From Candidatus Udaeobacter sp. (GTDB lineage: Bacteria; Patescibacteriota; Patescibacteriia; Magasanikbacterales; GWA2-37-8), in contig DATION010000002.1 in the NCBI GenBank assembly GCA_035473115.1, positions 9,469 through 73,468 on the forward strand: a stretch of DNA of 64,000 bases, in the 5' to 3' direction. Both the position numbers and the translations under genes were made by a program. Shown piece after piece: positions 4,637 through 61,391 of the stretch (positions are counted from its first letter, which is position 1; the number at the start of each line of letters is the position of its first letter). The notes beneath the pieces are model-generated. The model saw only the letters and a list, made by a program, of their open reading frames with translations. It made no database searches and was not told the DNA's origin.

Positions 4637-5695
4637 ATGGTAAATGGATTTTGGAAAAAATTAAAAAAACCGATAATGGTTCTGGCGCCAATGGCTAATG
4701 TCACCGACGCCGCTTTTCGGCGTATCATTGCGAAATACTCAAAATATGGCGGGCAAGATATGGGCGACTGGTCTAAGGAAAGTTTACCCGTCCGAAGCCT
4801 TAGCGAAGGCGGGCCAGATGTAATGTGGACTGAATTTGTGTCTTGTGACGGCTTAATGTCGCCGGGTCAAAAAAAGTTATTGGTAGATTTTATGTATACC
4901 GAAGCCGAGCGTCCGATCGTGGCGCAGATTTTTGGTTCCAAGCCGGAAAATTTTTATAAAACTGCTTTGCTTATCCAAGAGTTAGGTTTTGACGGCATTG
5001 ATATAAATATGGGCTGTCCGGATAAGAATGTAGAAAAACAGGGCGCCGGAGCCTGTCTAATAAAAAATCCTCAGCTAGCTCAAGAAATTATTCGGGAAAC
5101 AAAACGTGGAGCCGGTAAACTGCCGGTTTCAGTTAAAACCAGAATTGGTTATAATAAAAATTCTCTTAGTGAATGGTTGCCGGCATTGCTGGAAACCGAA
5201 CCCGCAGCCATTACCATCCATGCACGCACACGCAAAGAGTTATCTTTAGTTCCGGCCAAATGGGAAACAGTTGCCGATGCGGTGCGTATTCGTGATAGTT
5301 ATGATAGTTCGGAAAATAAAACTTTGATTTTAGGAAATGGGGACGTAAAAGATTTGGCTGATGCGGCAGAAAAAATAAAAATTAGCGGCGCCGACGGGGT
5401 AATGATCGGACGGGGTATTTTTGGTAATCCTTGGCTGTTTAATCCTGCCGTTGATTATGCCAAAATTCCAATTGAAGAAAAATTAAAAGTGATGGTTGAG
5501 CATACTTATTTGTTTGAAAAACTTCTGGTAGAGCACAAAAGTTTTGATATCATGAAAAAACACTACAAAGCCTATGTTAATGGCTTTGACGGCGCCAAAG
5601 AACTTCGTATTCAGTTGATGGAAGGAGCTAAAACTGCAGGTGATGTAGAAAATATTGTCACAATTTTTTTAGAGAAATTAAAAATATCTCAATAA
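4637..5695 (+). CDS. dus: tRNA-dihydrouridine synthase
   Basis: LAPMANVTDAAFR N-terminus and a TIM-barrel Dus family profile with a conserved Cys (NMGCP). Confidence 0.85.
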   Translation: MVNGFWKKLKKPIMVLAPMANVTDAAFRRIIAKYSKYGGQDMGDWSKESLPVRSLSEGGPDVMWTEFVSCDGLMSPGQKKLLVDFMYTEAERPIVAQIFGSKPENFYKTALLIQELGFDGIDINMGCPDKNVEKQGAGACLIKNPQLAQEIIRETKRGAGKLPVSVKTRIGYNKNSLSEWLPALLETEPAAITIHARTRKELSLVPAKWETVADAVRIRDSYDSSENKTLILGNGDVKDLADAAEKIKISGADGVMIGRGIFGNPWLFNPAVDYAKIPIEEKLKVMVEHTYLFEKLLVEHKSFDIMKKHYKAYVNGFDGAKELRIQLMEGAKTAGDVENIVTIFLEKLKISQ

Positions 5696-5780
5696 GTTGG
5701 TATTATTTTTACAGCGACCATCCCACCCTCAAGAGGGCGGCCTGCAAGGTCGTTTGGTCGCAAGAAAATAATACCAACTT
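5694..5780. repeat. AT-rich 16-bp perfect hairpin with conserved GC-rich core (family copy 1)
   Basis: Arms AAGTTGGTATTATTTT / AAAATAATACCAACTT enclose the core ...GCGACCATCCCACC...TTTGGTCGCAAG. Confidence 0.6.
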
Positions 5781-5817
5781 ATTGTTTTTTTTACTTGTTA
5801 AGGCTAATATATAATGT

Positions 5818-11598: not shown

Positions 11599-11606
11599 AA
11601 TTATTA

Positions 11607-11697
11607 GTAAATATTATTATTTTTTTGCTGCAGGTGCGCACGCCCGCAAAGGCTGCAAGCACGCAAGCGGCTTCGCTGCAAAAATAATAATATTTAC
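11607..11697. repeat. AT-rich 18-bp hairpin with GC-rich core (family copy 2, rearranged core)
   Basis: Arms GTAAATATTATTATTTTT / AAAAATAATAATATTTAC; the core carries GGTGCGC and ACGCCCGCAAA motifs. Confidence 0.45.
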
Positions 11698-11710
11698 TTA
11701 AATTATTTAT

Positions 11711-12232
11711 ATGACAGATGAAGAAAAAAATAAAGAAGATTTGCCAAATGAAGCAGGTGGCATTCCAAGTGAATTAGATTTAGCTCAAGCGCAAGCTGAA
11801 GAATATAAAACTAATTGGCAGCGAGCTTTGGCTGATTATCGTAATTTGCAAAAAGAAACCGCTGCTATGCGTTCGCAATGGGCGCAGATGAGTGAAGAAC
11901 AGATTTTGCAGAATTTTATTCCGGTTTACGAAAATTTTAAAAAAGCATTTAGCGCCAATTTGTCCGCAACCGGCGGTGATAGCGAAAAACAGTGGCAAAA
12001 CTGGAAGCAGGGAATAGAATATATCATGAAGCAATTTGGCGATGTGTTGAAGTCTTATAATGTTCAAGAAATTAAAACTACTGACGAAAAGTTTGATCCG
12101 CGGATGCATGAAGCGATTAGCGAAGAACAGGTGGATGGTAAAGAAGCCGGAATTATTTTAAGAGAAGTTGAAGGTGGATATAAAATGGGTGATAAAATAA
12201 TAAAACCAGCGCGAGTTATTATTAGTAAATAA
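11711..12232 (+). CDS. grpE: Nucleotide exchange factor GrpE
   Basis: Coiled-coil N-terminus and GrpE C-terminal beta domain (...GGYKMGDKIIKPARVII). Confidence 0.85.
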   Translation: MTDEEKNKEDLPNEAGGIPSELDLAQAQAEEYKTNWQRALADYRNLQKETAAMRSQWAQMSEEQILQNFIPVYENFKKAFSANLSATGGDSEKQWQNWKQGIEYIMKQFGDVLKSYNVQEIKTTDEKFDPRMHEAISEEQVDGKEAGIILREVEGGYKMGDKIIKPARVIISK

Positions 12233-12240
12233 GTTTATTT

Positions 12241-12894
12241 ATGAGAAGAGGAGAAACAGGAGATTTTCCTAAACCTAATGAAAAAAAACTAGATCGTGCT
12301 GCCACGGACTCTTTGCTTGATGATCGGGCTAAAACTGAGGATCATTTTGCTAATGATGCTGTTGAGCCGCCTGTTATTCTTGCTACTCAACATAACGAGG
12401 ATAGTAGTACGTTAGGTAGTGTAACAGAGGCTGCTGGCATTATTGAAGAAGCTGAAGAAGTTAATTTTCCAACTGGAAATGATACAGACGATGATCAGAA
12501 TTTTAGAGACCCAGAGGATGATGTTGAGATAAACAAATTTGGCATGGAAAATTTAAGAAAGTTAAGAACAGTAGATGAGGGCGATAGTTTTGACATGGAA
12601 AAGTTTCTTAGAACAAGAGCTTTAAAAAATAAATTAGGTTTATCACTTCCTTTGTTTGAAGTAGATAATAGAAATCCAAAATATGAAAAGGTTTTGAGAG
12701 CTGCTGAGAAGATAGTGGCTAAAAGTGATTCGAGTAAAATGCTTGTTCATATCATGCAGCGTTTGGTAGTTCATCCTACAGTTTTACGTCGTTTATTAGA
12801 AAAATATATAATAGAAAAAAAGACCGCTGAAGATAATTATATAAAAGTAAGAGACGCTTTAGCTGAATTGGATGGAACCAAACAAGGTGAATAA
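12241..12894 (+). CDS. Hypothetical protein with an acidic disordered N-terminal half, inserted between grpE and dnaK
   Basis: ORF 217 aa, AT-rich like the host genome, no family recognised; the start codon is uncertain. Confidence 0.5.
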   Translation: MRRGETGDFPKPNEKKLDRAATDSLLDDRAKTEDHFANDAVEPPVILATQHNEDSSTLGSVTEAAGIIEEAEEVNFPTGNDTDDDQNFRDPEDDVEINKFGMENLRKLRTVDEGDSFDMEKFLRTRALKNKLGLSLPLFEVDNRNPKYEKVLRAAEKIVAKSDSSKMLVHIMQRLVVHPTVLRRLLEKYIIEKKTAEDNYIKVRDALAELDGTKQGE

Positions 12895-12927
12895 TTTTAA
12901 ATATAAAATTTTAATTAAATAAATCAT

Positions 12928-14829
12928 ATGTCTAAAGTTCTTGGAATCGACTTAGGTACAACCAATTCCTGCATGGCCATCATTGAAGGCGGCCAGCCAA
13001 AAGTAATTGAAAACAAAGAAGGCGCCCGCACCACTCCTTCTATTGTGGCTGTTTCCAAAACCGGTGAACGTCTGGTCGGTCAATTAGCCAAGCGTCAATC
13101 AATCACTAATCCACAAAATACTTTATACTCGGTTAAGCGTTTAATTGGTCGCCGTTTTGAAGACGCCGAAGTTAAGCGTGATTTGTCTCTTTTACCATAC
13201 AAAATAGTTAAGAGCGGTGATGCCGTAAAAATAGAGATGCAAGGCAAAGAATATACTCCGCAAGAAATTTCGGCCATGGTATTGCAGAAAATGAAAACCG
13301 ACGCTGAAGAAAAATTAGGCGAAAAAATTACGGAAGCGGTCATTACCGTGCCGGCTTATTTTGATGACGCGCAGCGCCAAGCCACCAAAGATGCTGGAAC
13401 AATTGCTGGTTTAAATGTTTTGCGTATTATTAACGAACCAACTGCCGCTGCTTTGGCCTATGGTTTTGATAAAAAGAAGGATCAAAAAATTGCAGTTTAC
13501 GATTTGGGCGGCGGAACTTTTGATATCTCTATTTTGGAAGTCAGCGCCGATACTGTGCAAGTTTTATCCACCAACGGCGATACTCATCTTGGCGGTGATG
13601 ATTTTGATCAGGTTATAATTTCTTGGATCTTAGAAGAGTTTAAACGCGACCAAGGTTTGGATTTGAGCAAAGATCCTTTGGCTCTGCAGCGCATAAAAGA
13701 AGCGGCAGAAAAAGCCAAAATAGAATTATCTACTGCTCAAGAAACCGAAATCAATCAGCCGTTTATTACTTCCGATTCTACCGGGCCAAAACATTTGGTA
13801 ATGAAATTAACTAGAGCTAAATTGGAAGAATTAGTGGGCGATTTAGTTGATAAAAGTATGATTCCGGTACGCAAAGCCTTGGAAGACGCCAAGCTTTCGG
13901 CTAGTGACTTAAACGAAGTAGTAATGGTCGGCGGTATGACTCGTATGCCGCTGGTATTGCAGACTGTAGAAAAATTCTTTGGTAAAAAACCAAATATCAG
14001 TGTTAATCCGGATGAAGTTGTAGCTGTTGGCGCAGCCGTACAAGCTGGTGTCTTAAAAGGTGAAGTACATGATGTATTATTACTCGATGTTATCCCGCTA
14101 TCTTTTGGTTTGGAAACTATGGGGGGTGTGATGACCAAACTGATTGAACGCAACACTACTATTCCAACTTCCAAGAGTCAAGTATTTTCTACTGCCGCTG
14201 ACAATCAACCGGCTGTAGAAATTAATGTTTTGCAAGGTGAGCGTCCAATGGCTGCCGACAATAAAAATTTGGGCAGATTTATTTTGGATGGCATTCCGCC
14301 AGCTCCGCGCGGTGTGCCTCAAGTAGAAGTTACTTTTGATATTGATGCCAACGGTATTTTAAATGTTAAAGCCAAAGACAAGGCTACTAACAAAGAACAG
14401 TCGATTCGCATTGAAGCTTCAACCGGTTTATCCAAAGAAGAAGTGGAAAAAATGAAAAAAGACGCGGAGTCTCACGCTGAAGAAGATAAGAAAAAACAAG
14501 AACTGATTGAAACAAAAAATTTGGCTGATACCATGGTTTATACTACCGAAAAAATGATGAAAGAAGTTGAAGAAAAGAAAGTTGATGTTAGCGAAGATGA
14601 AAAAAATAAAGTAAATGAAGCTCTAAAAGTTTTGAAAGAAGTAAAAGATAAAGATGATGTTGAGGCGATTAAAAAAGCTTCGGAAGAATTATCTAAAGTC
14701 GCTCAAGTTGTCGGTACCAAGATGTATCAACAACAGCAGACAGCCGGTCAGCCAGGAGCAGAAAAAAAAGATGAAAAAGGAAACGAAGGTCCGATAGAGG
14801 GTGAAGTTGTTGATGAGCAAAATAAATAA
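12928..14829 (+). CDS. dnaK: Chaperone DnaK (Hsp70)
   Basis: Full-length Hsp70 with [16 protein letters not shown] and IVLVGG motifs. Confidence 0.97.
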
Positions 14830-16427: not shown

Positions 16428-16434
16428 TTTATAA

Positions 16435-16529
16435 AAAATAAATAACATAAATTTTTTACGCCCAAACTCTCCTTGCAGTCGGCCTCTGCGGAGGTGCGAT
16501 GGTCGTAATAAATTTATGTTATTTATTTT
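16435..16529. repeat. AT-rich 20-bp perfect hairpin with conserved GC-rich core (family copy 3, inverted orientation)
   Basis: Arms AAAATAAATAACATAAATTT / AAATTTATGTTATTTATTTT. The reverse complement of the core shares ACGACCATCGCACC and TTTGGGCGTAAAA with copy 4. Confidence 0.6.
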
Positions 16530-16534
16530 AGCGT

Positions 16535-33083: not shown

Positions 33084-33178
33084 AACCTCAGTTATAATAA
33101 TTTTTGCAACGACCATCGCACCCCCAGGTGGGAGACCGTAGGGAATTTGGGCGTAAAAAAATTATTATAACTGAGGTT
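33084..33178. repeat. AT-rich 22-bp perfect hairpin with conserved GC-rich core (family copy 4)
   Basis: Arms AACCTCAGTTATAATAATTTTT / AAAAATTATTATAACTGAGGTT; core GCAACGACCATCGCACC...TTTGGGCGTAAA. Confidence 0.6.
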
Positions 33179-51243: not shown

Positions 51244-51405
51244 ATTCTGTTACTTAATTAGAGTAACAATTTCTTTACAATTCAATTACAGGCGGTTTCT
51301 CTCTGTTTTAGAGGTCTTTAATTTGGGTCTCAAAAACAGGGAGAAATCCCGCTTCTTATCGGCAGTCCTGTTTCAGGACTGCTAACCACCGTTTCAAGAG
51401 GAGAG

Positions 51406-52275
51406 TTGAACATGATGAACTATCGGAATTCCTTGCAGTCGACCAGTGCCAATGGCCCGTTTATTGTCCTGGATCATTTCAGGATGACCAAGAAGCAAGT
51501 TGCCGAATTCCATCGGCGACTCCCCGGAGTGACCGAGGAGACGGTCCGCCAGGCGATCGAGCAGTACAACTTCTTCCTCGCCGAGGGTGGTAACGTCAGG
51601 CGCCCCTGGTTGCATGATGGTCAGAGCCGGATTGTCGCACCAATGTGCAGCGAAGCGGTGGACTTGCTCCAGCGTAAGTTCCCCAGGACCGTTGCGTCGT
51701 CCAATTGGTGTGGAGGATGGCCACGACAGCAGCAGCGCCAGGACCGTAAGGAGTACGGCCGGTACTACGAGCCGGGAGTCCGTGTGCTCATTGCTGCCAA
51801 GCGATCTCGTGTCGCGGTGGAGAAAGCACCAGTGACGACCTCGTCCCTGTCGATGGATTACGATGATGACTTTCCCGATCAGCGTGCATATGATAGAGCC
51901 TTCCGTGATCCTGATGACGATGACTATGGCCATGATGGAGACGGTGGCTTCTACGGAGATGGAGATGGTGATGGTTCGGACAACGAACCAAACCATGACA
52001 CCGACTCGGAGAATGCGACCAAGAAGATGTATGCCGCGACCCCTGTTGTGTTCAAACGATTCGGCGATCAGAAAACGATCGTTCTCGTCATCTCCAATGG
52101 TGATCGGAAGCGTGCCGAGATCTTCGAGATCAACGGGAGTGTTGTCACCACCCACAAGACCTCGCGTGCTCAGAAGTACACCGACGCTGAGCTCAAGGCC
52201 AAGGGATGGCAGCACGGCAATCTCGGTGACGAACGTTTCAAGCCGATTTTGGCGGTCATCCTGACCGCCAACTAG
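51406..52275 (+). CDS. Hypothetical bipartite protein with D/G-rich acidic linker (about 58% GC, foreign)
   Basis: RBS GAGGAG; N-terminal domain of about 130 aa, a DGDG/DDDD low-complexity linker, and a C-terminal domain of about 90 aa. The antisense 297-aa ORF is a GC artefact. Confidence 0.6.
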   Translation: MNMMNYRNSLQSTSANGPFIVLDHFRMTKKQVAEFHRRLPGVTEETVRQAIEQYNFFLAEGGNVRRPWLHDGQSRIVAPMCSEAVDLLQRKFPRTVASSNWCGGWPRQQQRQDRKEYGRYYEPGVRVLIAAKRSRVAVEKAPVTTSSLSMDYDDDFPDQRAYDRAFRDPDDDDYGHDGDGGFYGDGDGDGSDNEPNHDTDSENATKKMYAATPVVFKRFGDQKTIVLVISNGDRKRAEIFEINGSVVTTHKTSRAQKYTDAELKAKGWQHGNLGDERFKPILAVILTAN

Positions 52276-52404
52276 AAGGAGTCTCACTACCGTGAACTGA
52301 GCGTCAGTTCGCGGTACAGGCGCCCTCAGGAATATTTCTCCAGAGTCTGCGCTTCTTGCGCCAAATCATTTGGCCCCAGAAGCGCTCTGGAGAAATCCAA
52401 AACT

Positions 52405-58229: not shown

Positions 58230-60278
58230 ATGGCTTCAGAAGAAAAAGAAAAAAATATTGCTGGCAATCCGGAAATAAACTACTTTGCCATGACTAATTT
58301 TCGCAATAAAAATGCGAAATTTGGCATAAAGTTGGATGACCGTCGCCGGCATTTGTATGTGGTAGGCAAAACCGGAATGGGTAAAACAACCATGTTGGAA
58401 AACATGGTTCTTAATGATATCTATGCCGGTCATGGTGTCGGCGTAGTGGATCCGCACGGGGATTTTGCCGAAAAAATAATTGACTACATTCCGCCAAATC
58501 GTATCAACGACGTTGTCTATTTTAATCCGGCTGACATCGATTATCCGATCGGTTTTAATATTTTAGAAAGTATTGATCCGCGCTATCGCCATTTGGTAGC
58601 CTCGGGCCTGATGGGTGTTTTCAAAAAAATCTGGCCTGATGTTTGGAGTGCGCGCATGGAATACATTTTGAATAATACTCTTTTGGCTTTGCTGGAATTT
58701 CCTAATACAACTCTTTTGGGTATCAATCGTTTGCTCGCCGATGACGCTTATCGCAAACGAGTCATTAAAAATCTTAAAGATCCGGTCATCAGGTCTTTTT
58801 GGGAATCGGAATTTGCGGGCTATAACGATCGGTATAAGCAAGAAGCGGTAGCGCCGGTGCAAAATAAAATCGGTCAGTTTTTGTCCGCTTCGGTTATTCG
58901 CAATATTGTGGCGCAAGTAAAATCACGTATCAATATCCGCGAAATCATGGATACACGTAAAATTTTCATCATGAACTTATCCAAAGGTAGAATCGGTGAA
59001 GACAACTCCCGTTTGCTTGGTGGTATGTTAATTACCAAAATTCAGCTGGCAGCTATGGAAAGAGTAGACACTCCGGAAAAAGAACGCAAAGACTTTTTTC
59101 TTTATGTAGATGAGTTTCAAAACTTTGCCACTGAAAGCTTTTCTAACATTTTGTCCGAAGCCCGTAAATATCGCTTAGACCTGACCATGGCTCATCAATA
59201 TATGGAGCAGCTAGACGAAACAGTTTTGTCGGCGGTAATTGGTAACGTCGGTACGCTAGTAACTTTTAGAGTTGGCTCAACTGATGCCGAAATTTTAGCC
59301 AAAGAATTTGCCCCGACTTTTGTGGAAACTGATTTAGTAAACTTAACTAAATTTCAAATCTATTTAAAATTAATGATCGATGGCGTCGCCTCGCAGCCAT
59401 TTTCCGCCAACACTTTATCGCCGATAAATTTATCAACCAATAGCGCTGAAAAAGTTATTAAAGTTTCCCGCGAGCGTTATGCCACTAGCCGAGATAATAT
59501 TGAAGATAAAATTATGCGCTGGACCGGTATGGAAAGCGGCGGAACCGGTGAAACTGATGAAGATGATGAAGATTTGGATCCAGATGAAAACTACACTGAA
59601 GATGAAGAAGGTATGCCTGTTAAAATTTCTGATACTCCTAAAGTAACAGAAAAGAAACCGGTTGCACCCGCGCCCATAGCTCCAAAACCAGCTCCGGCGC
59701 CCGTTAAAAATAAAATGCCGGTGACAAATAATAACCGTTCATCTTCACCGGCTATTAATTCAACTGCCAAAAGGCCGCCAGCAGATATTAAAGGAGGCAA
59801 GCCGGTTTTATTAGTTGATACTAACCAAAAAGGCATAAGTTTATCACAGGCTGTGCATGCAAATAAAAATCAACAAAAACCGCCTCAGATTACCAAACAG
59901 TCTCCACCGGTTATAGAAAAAAAACAGGAACTTAAACCGGCAGCTTCTAATTTTAACCAAGCAAAACCAACTCCATCTCCATCTCCATCTCCATCTCCAT
60001 CTCCATCGTCAATATCAGCGCAGTCTGCGGTAGCTTCAGTTCAACCAAAAAATATTCCGCAACCAGCCCTTTCTGATAAAAAAGAACTAAATAGTGATAC
60101 TACGCCAATTCCAGTTTCAACTGCTTCTAATCAGCCAGCTGCTCCGCAGGATTCATTACCGCCAGCTGTTAAAGAATTAGAAAAACCAGTAGTGGCAGCT
60201 AGTTTGCCAAATCAGCAGGGTGCCATAGTTGGCGGAAAGATTATGCCAAATAGAATTGTAAAATTAGACGATAAATAA
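58230..60278 (+). CDS. TraD/VirD4/HerA-like (DUF87-type) P-loop ATPase with Pro/Ser-rich C-terminal tail
   Basis: Walker A VVGKTGMGKTTM and Walker B FLYVDEFQNF; no N-terminal TM; the final ~270 aa are low-complexity PAPxP/PSPS. Confidence 0.65.
   Translation: MASEEKEKNIAGNPEINYFAMTNFRNKNAKFGIKLDDRRRHLYVVGKTGMGKTTMLENMVLNDIYAGHGVGVVDPHGDFAEKIIDYIPPNRINDVVYFNPADIDYPIGFNILESIDPRYRHLVASGLMGVFKKIWPDVWSARMEYILNNTLLALLEFPNTTLLGINRLLADDAYRKRVIKNLKDPVIRSFWESEFAGYNDRYKQEAVAPVQNKIGQFLSASVIRNIVAQVKSRINIREIMDTRKIFIMNLSKGRIGEDNSRLLGGMLITKIQLAAMERVDTPEKERKDFFLYVDEFQNFATESFSNILSEARKYRLDLTMAHQYMEQLDETVLSAVIGNVGTLVTFRVGSTDAEILAKEFAPTFVETDLVNLTKFQIYLKLMIDGVASQPFSANTLSPINLSTNSAEKVIKVSRERYATSRDNIEDKIMRWTGMESGGTGETDEDDEDLDPDENYTEDEEGMPVKISDTPKVTEKKPVAPAPIAPKPAPAPVKNKMPVTNNNRSSSPAINSTAKRPPADIKGGKPVLLVDTNQKGISLSQAVHANKNQQKPPQITKQSPPVIEKKQELKPAASNFNQAKPTPSPSPSPSPSPSSISAQSAVASVQPKNIPQPALSDKKELNSDTTPIPVSTASNQPAAPQDSLPPAVKELEKPVVAASLPNQQGAIVGGKIMPNRIVKLDDK
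59973..60008 (+). repeat. (CCATCT)5-CCATCG hexanucleotide tandem repeat encoding (PS)n
   Basis: Perfect tandem copies inside the ATPase tail ORF, in frame. Confidence 0.9.
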
Positions 60279-60842: not shown

Positions 60843-61391
60843 AAAGAATTTTTTTAAAATAAAATAATTTTAATTTCTATTTACGCTTTTTGACCGAGCA
60901 AAAAGCGTAAGAAAAACTCGCCGAGCCAGTGCTCTCCACCGGTACTTCCATCGGCTCATGTCGCTTTGGCTGGCAAAGAGCATAGTCGCATGCCAGCCAA
61001 TAGCCTGACATTTCACCGTGGCAAGTACACGGTGAATCGCAAAGCTCGGATCGACCGTCCATTGTCCGTCGTTGTCAGTTCGGGCGAGCATTGGAAATCT
61101 TGAGGTTTAATTTATAGGTGAATTGGAATGGTCGCTATTATTCCATCTGTAGATGGAATAATAGGACTGGTTGTGCTGTTTGAGCCGACCGTTAGAAACG
61201 GTCGAGCGAGTTCACAACCAGAATGACAATGAATCCTAAATTATCCGAAAGTTTCCACCGCGAGCGATTCTTGGTTACTTCTTTGAAGAAGTAACGGGGG
61301 ATGGTTACAAAAGGTGGATGTTAGGTTTGGGTTAGGAAAAGTTAGTAGTACTTTACTTGAAAAAATCTAAAAAATAGAGTAGTTTAGGTTT

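Follow-up and report, generated by a model that had tools for sequence, protein, structure and literature searches.

Background

Small palindromic repeat families, such as miniature inverted-repeat transposable elements (MITEs), Correia elements, Rickettsia palindromic elements, REP/BIME and ERIC sequences, are non-coding, hairpin-forming units of ~100 bp that lie in intergenic DNA at gene ends, are present in some genomes and absent from their relatives, have a conserved inverted repeat of short length, and are co-transcribed with adjacent genes. Here we describe a hairpin family that resembles them in these respects (its short inverted repeat is ATWAWTTT, and its transcription is predicted), with four copies (c1 to c4) in a stretch of 64,000 nt from a metagenome-assembled genome (MAG; contig DATION010000002.1, hereafter "the window") and one copy (L9, in L009 and L039) in Candidatus Magasanikbacteria RIFOXYD1_FULL_40_23. 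Throughout, c1, c3, c4, and L9 are called standard copies and c2 a variant. The family is real and previously undescribed, and its anatomy is unusual; its insertion mechanism and function are what we infer below. Bacteria of the candidate phyla radiation (CPR), in which the window finds its close homologues, have very compact genomes, and to our knowledge descriptions of mobile elements from this group are few.

MITE- and REP-type families conserve the stem or the terminal repeats over numerous similar copies, whereas the hairpins described here conserve the centre and carry a perfect stem, most of which is specific to each copy. As in MITEs, empty sites exist in relatives (for c1, c2, c4, and L9). 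Only the inner 8–9 bp of the arms are conserved, however, and the true palindrome termini (the outer 10–14 bp) differ. Unlike MITE and REP families, the hairpins have a tiny copy number (diverged copies within 76 kb), no clear target duplication, and no partner transposase among the window open reading frames (ORFs) that were scanned. The same holds for the REP/REPIN comparison, in which stems differ around a conserved centre and no Y1 transposase was found in the scanned ORFs.

Integron attC sites and IS200/IS605 end hairpins also conserve structure over stem sequence, with irregularities that could mark one strand, as an A.G mismatch might do here. However, attC sites have conserved outer R boxes (RYYYAAC...GTTRRRY) and imperfect stems with extrahelical bases, whereas the present stems are perfect, share no motif at the outer arm ends, and lie among housekeeping genes with no cassette context and no integrase or Y1 transposase found nearby. 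A retron non-coding RNA fits no better, as no reverse transcriptase gene is a neighbour and a core of 51–55 nt could not hold both msr and msd. The palindromic GC clusters in yeast mitochondrial genomes are likewise GC-rich hairpins of tens of bases in AT-rich intergenic DNA; they are sporadic, exchanged between species, and fast-changing by substitution, merger, and shuffling, with putative short target duplications and an unknown moving enzyme (PMC4478555). Their likeness to the present family is by analogy, with no relationship expected at the sequence level, and they differ in their organelle host, their many copies per genome, and the lack of a long AT-rich perfect stem.

Four perfect hairpins with GC-rich cores

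A repeat search and an independent scan both found perfect inverted repeats at four sites of the window, with arms of 19–22 bp separated by 51–55 nt. The original prediction had placed perfect AT-rich arms around a GC-rich core at these four sites, which we could confirm, except that the arms measure 19–22 bp rather than 16–22 bp. Copy c1 lies on the plus strand, where the repeat search gave 20-bp arms at 5690–5709 and 5765–5784 and a 55-nt core at 5710–5764. Copy c2 (11606–11698; strand uncertain) has 19-bp arms at 11606–11624 and 11680–11698 and a 55-nt core; c3 (16435–16529, minus strand) has 20-bp arms at 16435–16454 and 16510–16529 and a 55-nt core at 16455–16509; and c4 (33084–33178, plus strand) has 22-bp arms at 33084–33105 and 33157–33178 and a 51-nt core at 33106–33156. 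The GC content is 5–20% in the arms and 56–67% in the cores, compared with 34–44% in the window.

This architecture is unique to the four hairpins in a scan of the whole window, where ordinary hairpins have perfect arms of 12–16 bp or mismatched ones (two examples: 78% and 84%) and loops of at most 14 nt. By our estimate, perfect repeats of 19–22 bp are expected by chance at ~1e-5 per 64 kb; with four seen, a chance origin cannot hold. All four copies are predicted to fold at −35 to −46 kcal/mol, with z-scores of about −4 to −9.6 against shuffled sequences (c1: −46.4 kcal/mol, z −9.6), and the folding is equally good for both strands of c1–c4.

The arms also contain hexamers that resemble a −10 box (TATTAT and TATAAT; TACAAT in L9), 3–7 nt from the core edge, at 5701–5706, 11612–11617, and 33093–33098 and at the mirror positions in the right arms. 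A promoter scan flagged the left arms of c1 and c2, although such matches are common in AT-rich DNA.

A conserved core within a copy-specific stem

Two sequence blocks, CGACCATCSCACC and TTTGGKCGYAA, are shared by c1, c3 (read on the minus strand), and c4, and are absent from c2. The prediction that all four copies share core blocks thus stands for three of them, c2 lacking both blocks and scoring at the level of its arms. The blocks (13 and 11 nt) show little or no difference between copies, while the centres and outer arms have diverged to saturation. Identical blocks within copies that are otherwise saturated reveal purifying selection, which could act on the element (competence for copying) or on the host (RNA function).

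A covariance model, the building of which had been part of the original prediction, was made from c1, L9, c4, and c3 and then scored on the same copies. On the core strand it gave 103.8 bits for c1, 101 for L9, 96.0 for c4, and 88.4 for c3, whereas the opposite strands scored 33–41 bits (40.6 for c1, 40.4 for c3, and 33.0 for c4), as much as the arms contribute by themselves. The difference between strands (88–104 versus 33–41 bits) indicates that the core is both conserved and asymmetric.

The arms had been described as completely different between copies, which does not hold for their inner ends: there, the 8 nt next to the core, ATWAWTTT, hardly vary among the five known copies, c2 included, so only the outer 10–14 bp are copy-specific. 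Whole-arm similarity between copies does not exceed that of shuffled sequences. The conserved module includes an AT-rich inner inverted repeat of 8–9 bp, ATWAWTTT(T), and a copy-specific outer extension brings the stem to 19–22 bp. Inside this repeat lies a 7-bp helix, RCGACCA/TGGKCGY, whose outer pair is G-C or A-U and whose position 4 is A-U in c1 and A.G in the three others. In c1, its 5' strand (GCGACCA, 5714–5720, plus strand) pairs with TGGTCGC at 5755–5761 (plus strand), within the conserved block TTTGGTCGCAA. The interior enclosed by this helix is asymmetric, GC-rich, and ~35 nt long, and contains TCSCACC, a hairpin of 3–5 bp, and GTTT. The small inner hairpin (in c1, CCCT CAAG AGGG at 5726–5737, plus strand) keeps its place in all copies while its sequence differs; its 4 bp include two compensatory pairs and one broken cell. 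It had been predicted that the inner helices differ yet stay paired, and this is true of the 4-bp hairpin, while a second inner helix is not conserved.

In the four-copy alignment (c1, L9, c4, and c3), 95% of the cells are paired, versus 82% in shuffles and 43–53% with slid partners, and the helices supported are the outer stem, the 7-bp helix, and the 4-bp hairpin. Ten pairs show double changes and none a one-sided change, in agreement with the prediction that pairing is kept as the sequence changes. The differences at paired positions are all Watson-Crick double changes without G-U pairs; similarly, the 103 arm base pairs are all Watson-Crick, with no G-U pair and no one-sided change. Covariation that is free of G-U pairs, together with stems that have no flaw on either strand, agrees no less with a palindrome kept at the DNA level than with an RNA. 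The perfection of the 103 arm base pairs and the absence of one-sided changes, set beside the imperfect ordinary hairpins of the window, point to a constraint at the DNA level.

Judged by eye, the core shows no adenine-specific pattern (like that of diversity-generating retroelements) and no 7-nt periodic one. A resemblance of TTTGGGCGTAAA to the 16S rRNA motif TTGGGCGTAAAG was dismissed as a coincidence because the spacing of the neighbouring motifs does not fit.

Copy c2 shares the architecture of the others, with a core of 67% GC. Its plus strand carries CGCAC, a small GCC/GGC hairpin, and CTGCAAG at the same positions as the corresponding parts of the standard copies, and it has a 7-bp helix of its own, TTGCTGC/GCTGCAA, with a T.T mismatch. 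Its covariance-model scores on the two strands, 39.1 and 29.0 bits, are at the arms-only level, as opposed to 88–104 bits for standard copies, and its core is therefore not a standard member; we treat c2 as a divergent relative of the family. That c2 is a standard copy in reverse orientation was rejected, since both strands score at the arms-only level and CGCAC and CTGCAAG align on the plus strand.

A fifth copy in another Magasanikbacteria genome

A scan with exact or strict patterns through 185,579 species genomes, one per species, returned 29 loci. Three of these were read, and one, L009, is a true copy (L9); its 22-bp arms differ in sequence from those of the window copies, and its core measures 53 nt. 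The other two are plain GC-rich sequence without flanking arms, and the remaining 26, on non-Patescibacteria contigs, were taken as chance matches. The same patterns in the JGI metagenomes found only the L9 copy again (L039). Thus L9 is present in two assemblies, and c1 was also found in an independent Logan contig (L030). In its 5' half, c1 is nearer to L9 (26 of 28 positions identical) than to c3 or c4.

With filters off, the covariance model found no further copy in the window or in ~164 kb of relatives, an architecture scan found none in ~300 kb of fetched loci, and none lies on L051, a 12-kb contig of the window's genome. The search for further copies advocated by the original prediction yielded only one copy elsewhere, and this came from the pattern scans. 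In total, five copies are known from two genomes: three standard copies and c2 within 76 kb of the window's genome, and one copy in the other genome. The shared blocks and the additional copy in another Magasanikbacteria genome bear out the claim that the hairpins form a real sequence family and are not unrelated terminators.

Rfam 15 at its gathering threshold found only a tRNA-Glu in the whole window. At E<=10, c1 had terminator-like chance matches far below threshold, the c4 core had none, and the c2 core had three sub-threshold chance matches. A phage or plasmid origin was also considered and rejected, since only 21-nt chance matches were found and three viral-contig scans gave chance matches, none with flanking arms. 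Likewise, no source from which arms or cores could have been copied was present in any sequence compared.

Whole hairpins gained at gene junctions

The copies were predicted to sit directly 3' of genes, and all four window copies indeed begin 0–7 nt downstream of a stop codon (0–19 nt over every copy, including L9). Copy c1 lies between dus and a phospholipase D-like gene, with the dus stop codon (5693–5695) inside its left arm; c2 lies between hrcA and grpE, within the hrcA-grpE-dnaK heat-shock operon; c3 fills the 107-nt spacer (16428–16534) between the convergent dnaJ and rnhA genes; c4 follows a class I methyltransferase gene and precedes a small GT4 N-domain gene; and L9 separates convergent genes for a pyridoxal phosphate (PLP) enzyme and a GHL15 protein. 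These flanking genes (dus, hrcA/grpE, dnaJ/rnhA, methyltransferase, PLP enzyme) have no common function. The core of each standard copy reads in the sense direction of the upstream gene, for which only c1 and c4 are informative.

Syntenic loci of relatives were located with DnaK, the methyltransferase, and the PLP enzyme as anchors. The hrcA/grpE spacer measures 112 nt with the element (c2), against 4 nt in three relatives (L031, L033, and L034) and 15 nt in a fourth (L035). Similarly, the spacers at dus/phospholipase D (c1), methyltransferase/GT4-N (c4), and PLP enzyme/GHL15 (L9, in L039) measure 122, 108, and 116 nt with the element, versus 31 nt in L031 and L033, 1 nt in L055 and L057, and 4 nt in L052 and L054, respectively. 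In the aligned sequences of these four sites, the relatives lack the whole palindrome plus 6–15 extra nt; each event thus gained ~107–112 bp, of which the hairpin makes up ~95 bp. Three of the insertions (c2, c4, and L9) went into spacers formerly of 1–4 nt.

The absence of any hairpin at these four orthologous sites indicates that the core was not inserted there into terminator hairpins that already existed and that stem and core came together. DnaK identity places L031 (95.2%) as the sister of the window and leaves L033/L034 and L035 outside, and these relationships make one gain per site more parsimonious than three or more losses. The parsimonious conclusion is that gene junctions gained the whole unit with its stem after the split from the nearest sequenced relatives; a related copy, L9, occupies a non-orthologous junction of a distant Magasanikbacteria genome.

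The c3 site differs from the others. Relatives carry an ordinary bidirectional terminator beside the rnhA stop codon, and in L031 the interval between dnaJ and rnhA (12172–14285) holds genes for a sigma-70 factor, an unknown protein, and a DUF5666 protein. All three genes are present in L031, L033, and L035 and two of them in L034, while the window has only c3, exactly at this point of deletion or non-insertion.

Candidate target duplications were seen at c2 (TTAGAATTATT and TTAAATTATTT, versus a single TTAAAATTAT in relatives) and at L9 (TTAACT and TTACTG, versus a single CTACTG). The direct repeats amount to ~10 nt at c2, 5–6 nt at L9, and 3–4 nt at c4, with none at c1 or c3, and all are of low complexity. 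In the right arm of c4, GAGG lies 9 nt before the downstream ATG and is mirrored by CCTC in the left arm. Together with the 1-nt stop-start gap of the relatives, this hints that the arm evolved after insertion and that the partner arm followed.

An unrelated imperfect hairpin of 81 nt, with AAGGCTT/AAGCCTT units and a predicted folding energy of −36 to −41 kcal/mol, occupies the same methyltransferase/GT4-N junction as c4 in another relative (L058, 6228–6308), which suggests that this junction, or junctions generally in these genomes, repeatedly gain hairpins.

The MAG has probably been given the wrong taxonomic name: at NCBI, the proteins of the 233,864-bp source contig are labelled Udaeobacter (Verrucomicrobiota), but close homologues and synteny are all with Magasanikbacteria and Parcubacteria (CPR).

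A palindromic insertion element or a structured RNA

A sequence family whose copies were gained at non-orthologous junctions in two genomes, are absent from sister sequences, and include a pair (c1 and L9) that is closer across genomes than within one points to an insertional element that spreads horizontally or within genomes. We therefore read the family, giving this an even chance of being right, as a rare, lineage-specific, non-autonomous palindromic insertion element whose transcript forms a very stable hairpin between genes. The conserved module would be copied in trans by an enzyme encoded elsewhere, probably acting on a folded single strand. Template switching within the hairpin, as DNA is replicated, would both extend the stem and keep it free of mismatches. 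This process is known to produce a perfect stem in a single event and to mend existing ones (PMC8794818), and it would explain how the outer stems can be copy-specific yet without a mismatch or G-T pair. After insertion, the element should be co-transcribed with the upstream gene and fold into a very stable hairpin, which would set the cistrons on either side apart by forming a 3' end or a processing site. Copy c2 lies within the heat-shock operon, and c3 and L9 each fill a convergent spacer. The perfect duplex of 19–22 bp, about two helical turns, matches the size of RNase III substrates and is a putative site for this enzyme. Known RNase III hairpins, such as the intervening sequences of rRNA and the intercistronic sites of phage T7, are likewise sporadic insertions of ~100 nt in or between transcribed units with an uninterrupted duplex of this length. 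Unlike rRNA intervening sequences, the present hairpins lie in mRNA spacers and have a conserved apical domain.

Several observations weigh against an insertion element. No transposase, integrase, reverse transcriptase, or Y1 domain was found among the ~30 window ORFs scanned, and the copy number is very low for a mobile element (the strict scans added one copy), albeit with strict patterns. The candidate target duplications are of unequal length and fall within AT-rich DNA of low complexity, and the events are not datable because the relatives are too distant for intergenic regions to be aligned. Compared with the empty target sites, the outer arms are no more similar than shuffles, which leaves a template-switching origin of these arms without direct support; for the same reason, copying of the outer arms from the target flank was rejected. 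A diverged core centre between two identical blocks also fits selection on a host function.

A possible, though less probable, view is that the hairpins are a functional structured RNA family, either a small RNA or a cis element (in 3' untranslated regions or between cistrons), in which the host selects each copy and the long closing stem presents either RNase III or a protein with the conserved GC-rich junction. Such a role is compatible with an origin by insertion. It would account for the near-identity of the 13- and 11-nt blocks beside saturated centres and arms, for the strand asymmetry of the core (88–104 versus 33–41 bits), and for the match between core strand and the sense of the gene that ends 0–19 nt upstream in the four standard copies, although only two copies are informative on orientation. 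Compensatory changes in the 7-bp helix and the small hairpin, a stem length held at 19–22 bp, and folding z-scores of −7 to −9.6 are also in its favour, but the second inner helix is not conserved, the 103 arm base pairs contain no G-U pair or one-sided change while both strands fold equally well, and no Rfam family matches even at E<=10. Moreover, the flanking genes share no function, and close relatives manage without the element.

The remaining explanations fare worse. One, put forward in the original prediction, is that the GC-rich core alone is mobile, as a miniature element inserting into the loops of existing AT-rich terminator hairpins. The ordinary bidirectional terminator of relatives at the c3 site and the conserved blocks at both core ends, which recall transposon termini, would suit it. 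However, the empty sites of c1, c2, c4, and L9 are hairpin-free with almost no spacer, which contradicts it at four of five sites; the window has no unoccupied AT-rich palindrome with arms of at least 16 bp; and conservation extends from the core into the inner 8 bp of the arms, so that we consider it highly improbable. Only slightly better, and still quite improbable, is the idea that the hairpins are scars or attachment-site remnants of a larger integrating element, whose ends were joined after excision or internal deletion. Conserved blocks at both core ends around a variable centre, the position of c3 where three genes of relatives are missing, and the seemingly rearranged core of c2 speak for this origin, yet no larger element with such ends was found in the window, the loci, or the collections, the core length is tightly kept at 51–55 nt, and the perfect copy-specific stems would be left unexplained.

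Ordinary, independently evolved terminators, or an assembly artefact, are scarcely credible. Bidirectional intrinsic terminators are likewise gene-end hairpins that separate convergent genes and combine a GC helix with A-rich and T-rich sides, and the position at gene ends agrees with this, as do the T8 run 3' of the right arm of c1 and the T run after L9, the only copies with a T run after the whole hairpin. Here, however, the polarity is opposite (T run, GC helix, A run), with an A run after the GC helix on both strands; the loop is ~35 nt versus 3–8 nt in terminators; and an AT stem of 19–22 bp parts the GC helix from any T run. A terminator scan called none of c1–c4, in which the GC helix is followed on the core strand by AAGAAAA or AAAAAA. 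Convergence is excluded by the 13- and 11-nt blocks shared between three window copies and a genome from another sample, and an artefact is contradicted by the recovery of c1 in an independent contig and of L9 in two assemblies.

Returning to the palindromic insertion element, a more novel form of it, which we regard as unlikely, would be a new kind of structure-defined mobile element: a conserved GC-rich junction of ~70 nt would be recognised and copied, and each insertion would build, or later re-template, its own perfect stem of ~20 bp. If this were true, the termini of such an element would not be an inherited sequence, and it would carry a hairpin, possibly cut by RNase III, to new places between cistrons and could split tightly coupled genes in streamlined CPR genomes. 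What is seen at the junctions is a hairpin of ~100 bp gained in gene spacers of 1–4 nt with the flanking frames apparently intact, once inside a heat-shock operon. If the family is mobile, it reverses the usual logic of MITE and REP elements, as the centre is conserved and the stem mostly free yet perfect, and it would offer a natural case for how template switching creates and maintains perfect stems; if it is a functional RNA, it would be a new operon-breaking motif. Either way, it shows a route by which intergenic hairpins arise in streamlined genomes, with a general importance that is limited for now by its rarity.

Other features of the window and its genome

On contig L051 of the window's genome, a 611-nt non-coding stretch (2059–2669) lies 3' of a PLP-enzyme gene and contains no tRNA, tmRNA, or Rfam match at the gathering threshold. 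Two long ORFs overlap at 51394–52287 of the window, one of 297 aa on the minus strand, which has no Pfam match, and one of 289 aa on the plus strand.

A homologue of TraG/VirD4-like coupling proteins (TrwB_AAD_bind, T4SS-DNA_transf) is encoded at 58230–60278 amid housekeeping genes, just upstream of a zinc-finger ORF and of the non-coding stretch at 60880–61340. The original prediction had linked this stretch to the hairpins through a CGACCAT motif. The 8-mer at 61128 is a chance match, as at least two matches occur in 30 of 100 shuffles, and the covariance model finds no family member there, so the link was dropped. No tRNA, tmRNA, or credible Rfam match at E<=1 was found in the stretch either. 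It extends over ~460 nt between the zinc-finger ORF and mnmA, with a fairly high GC content and several hairpins, among them a perfect one of 14 bp at 61135–61164, and is a possible candidate for a novel non-coding RNA.

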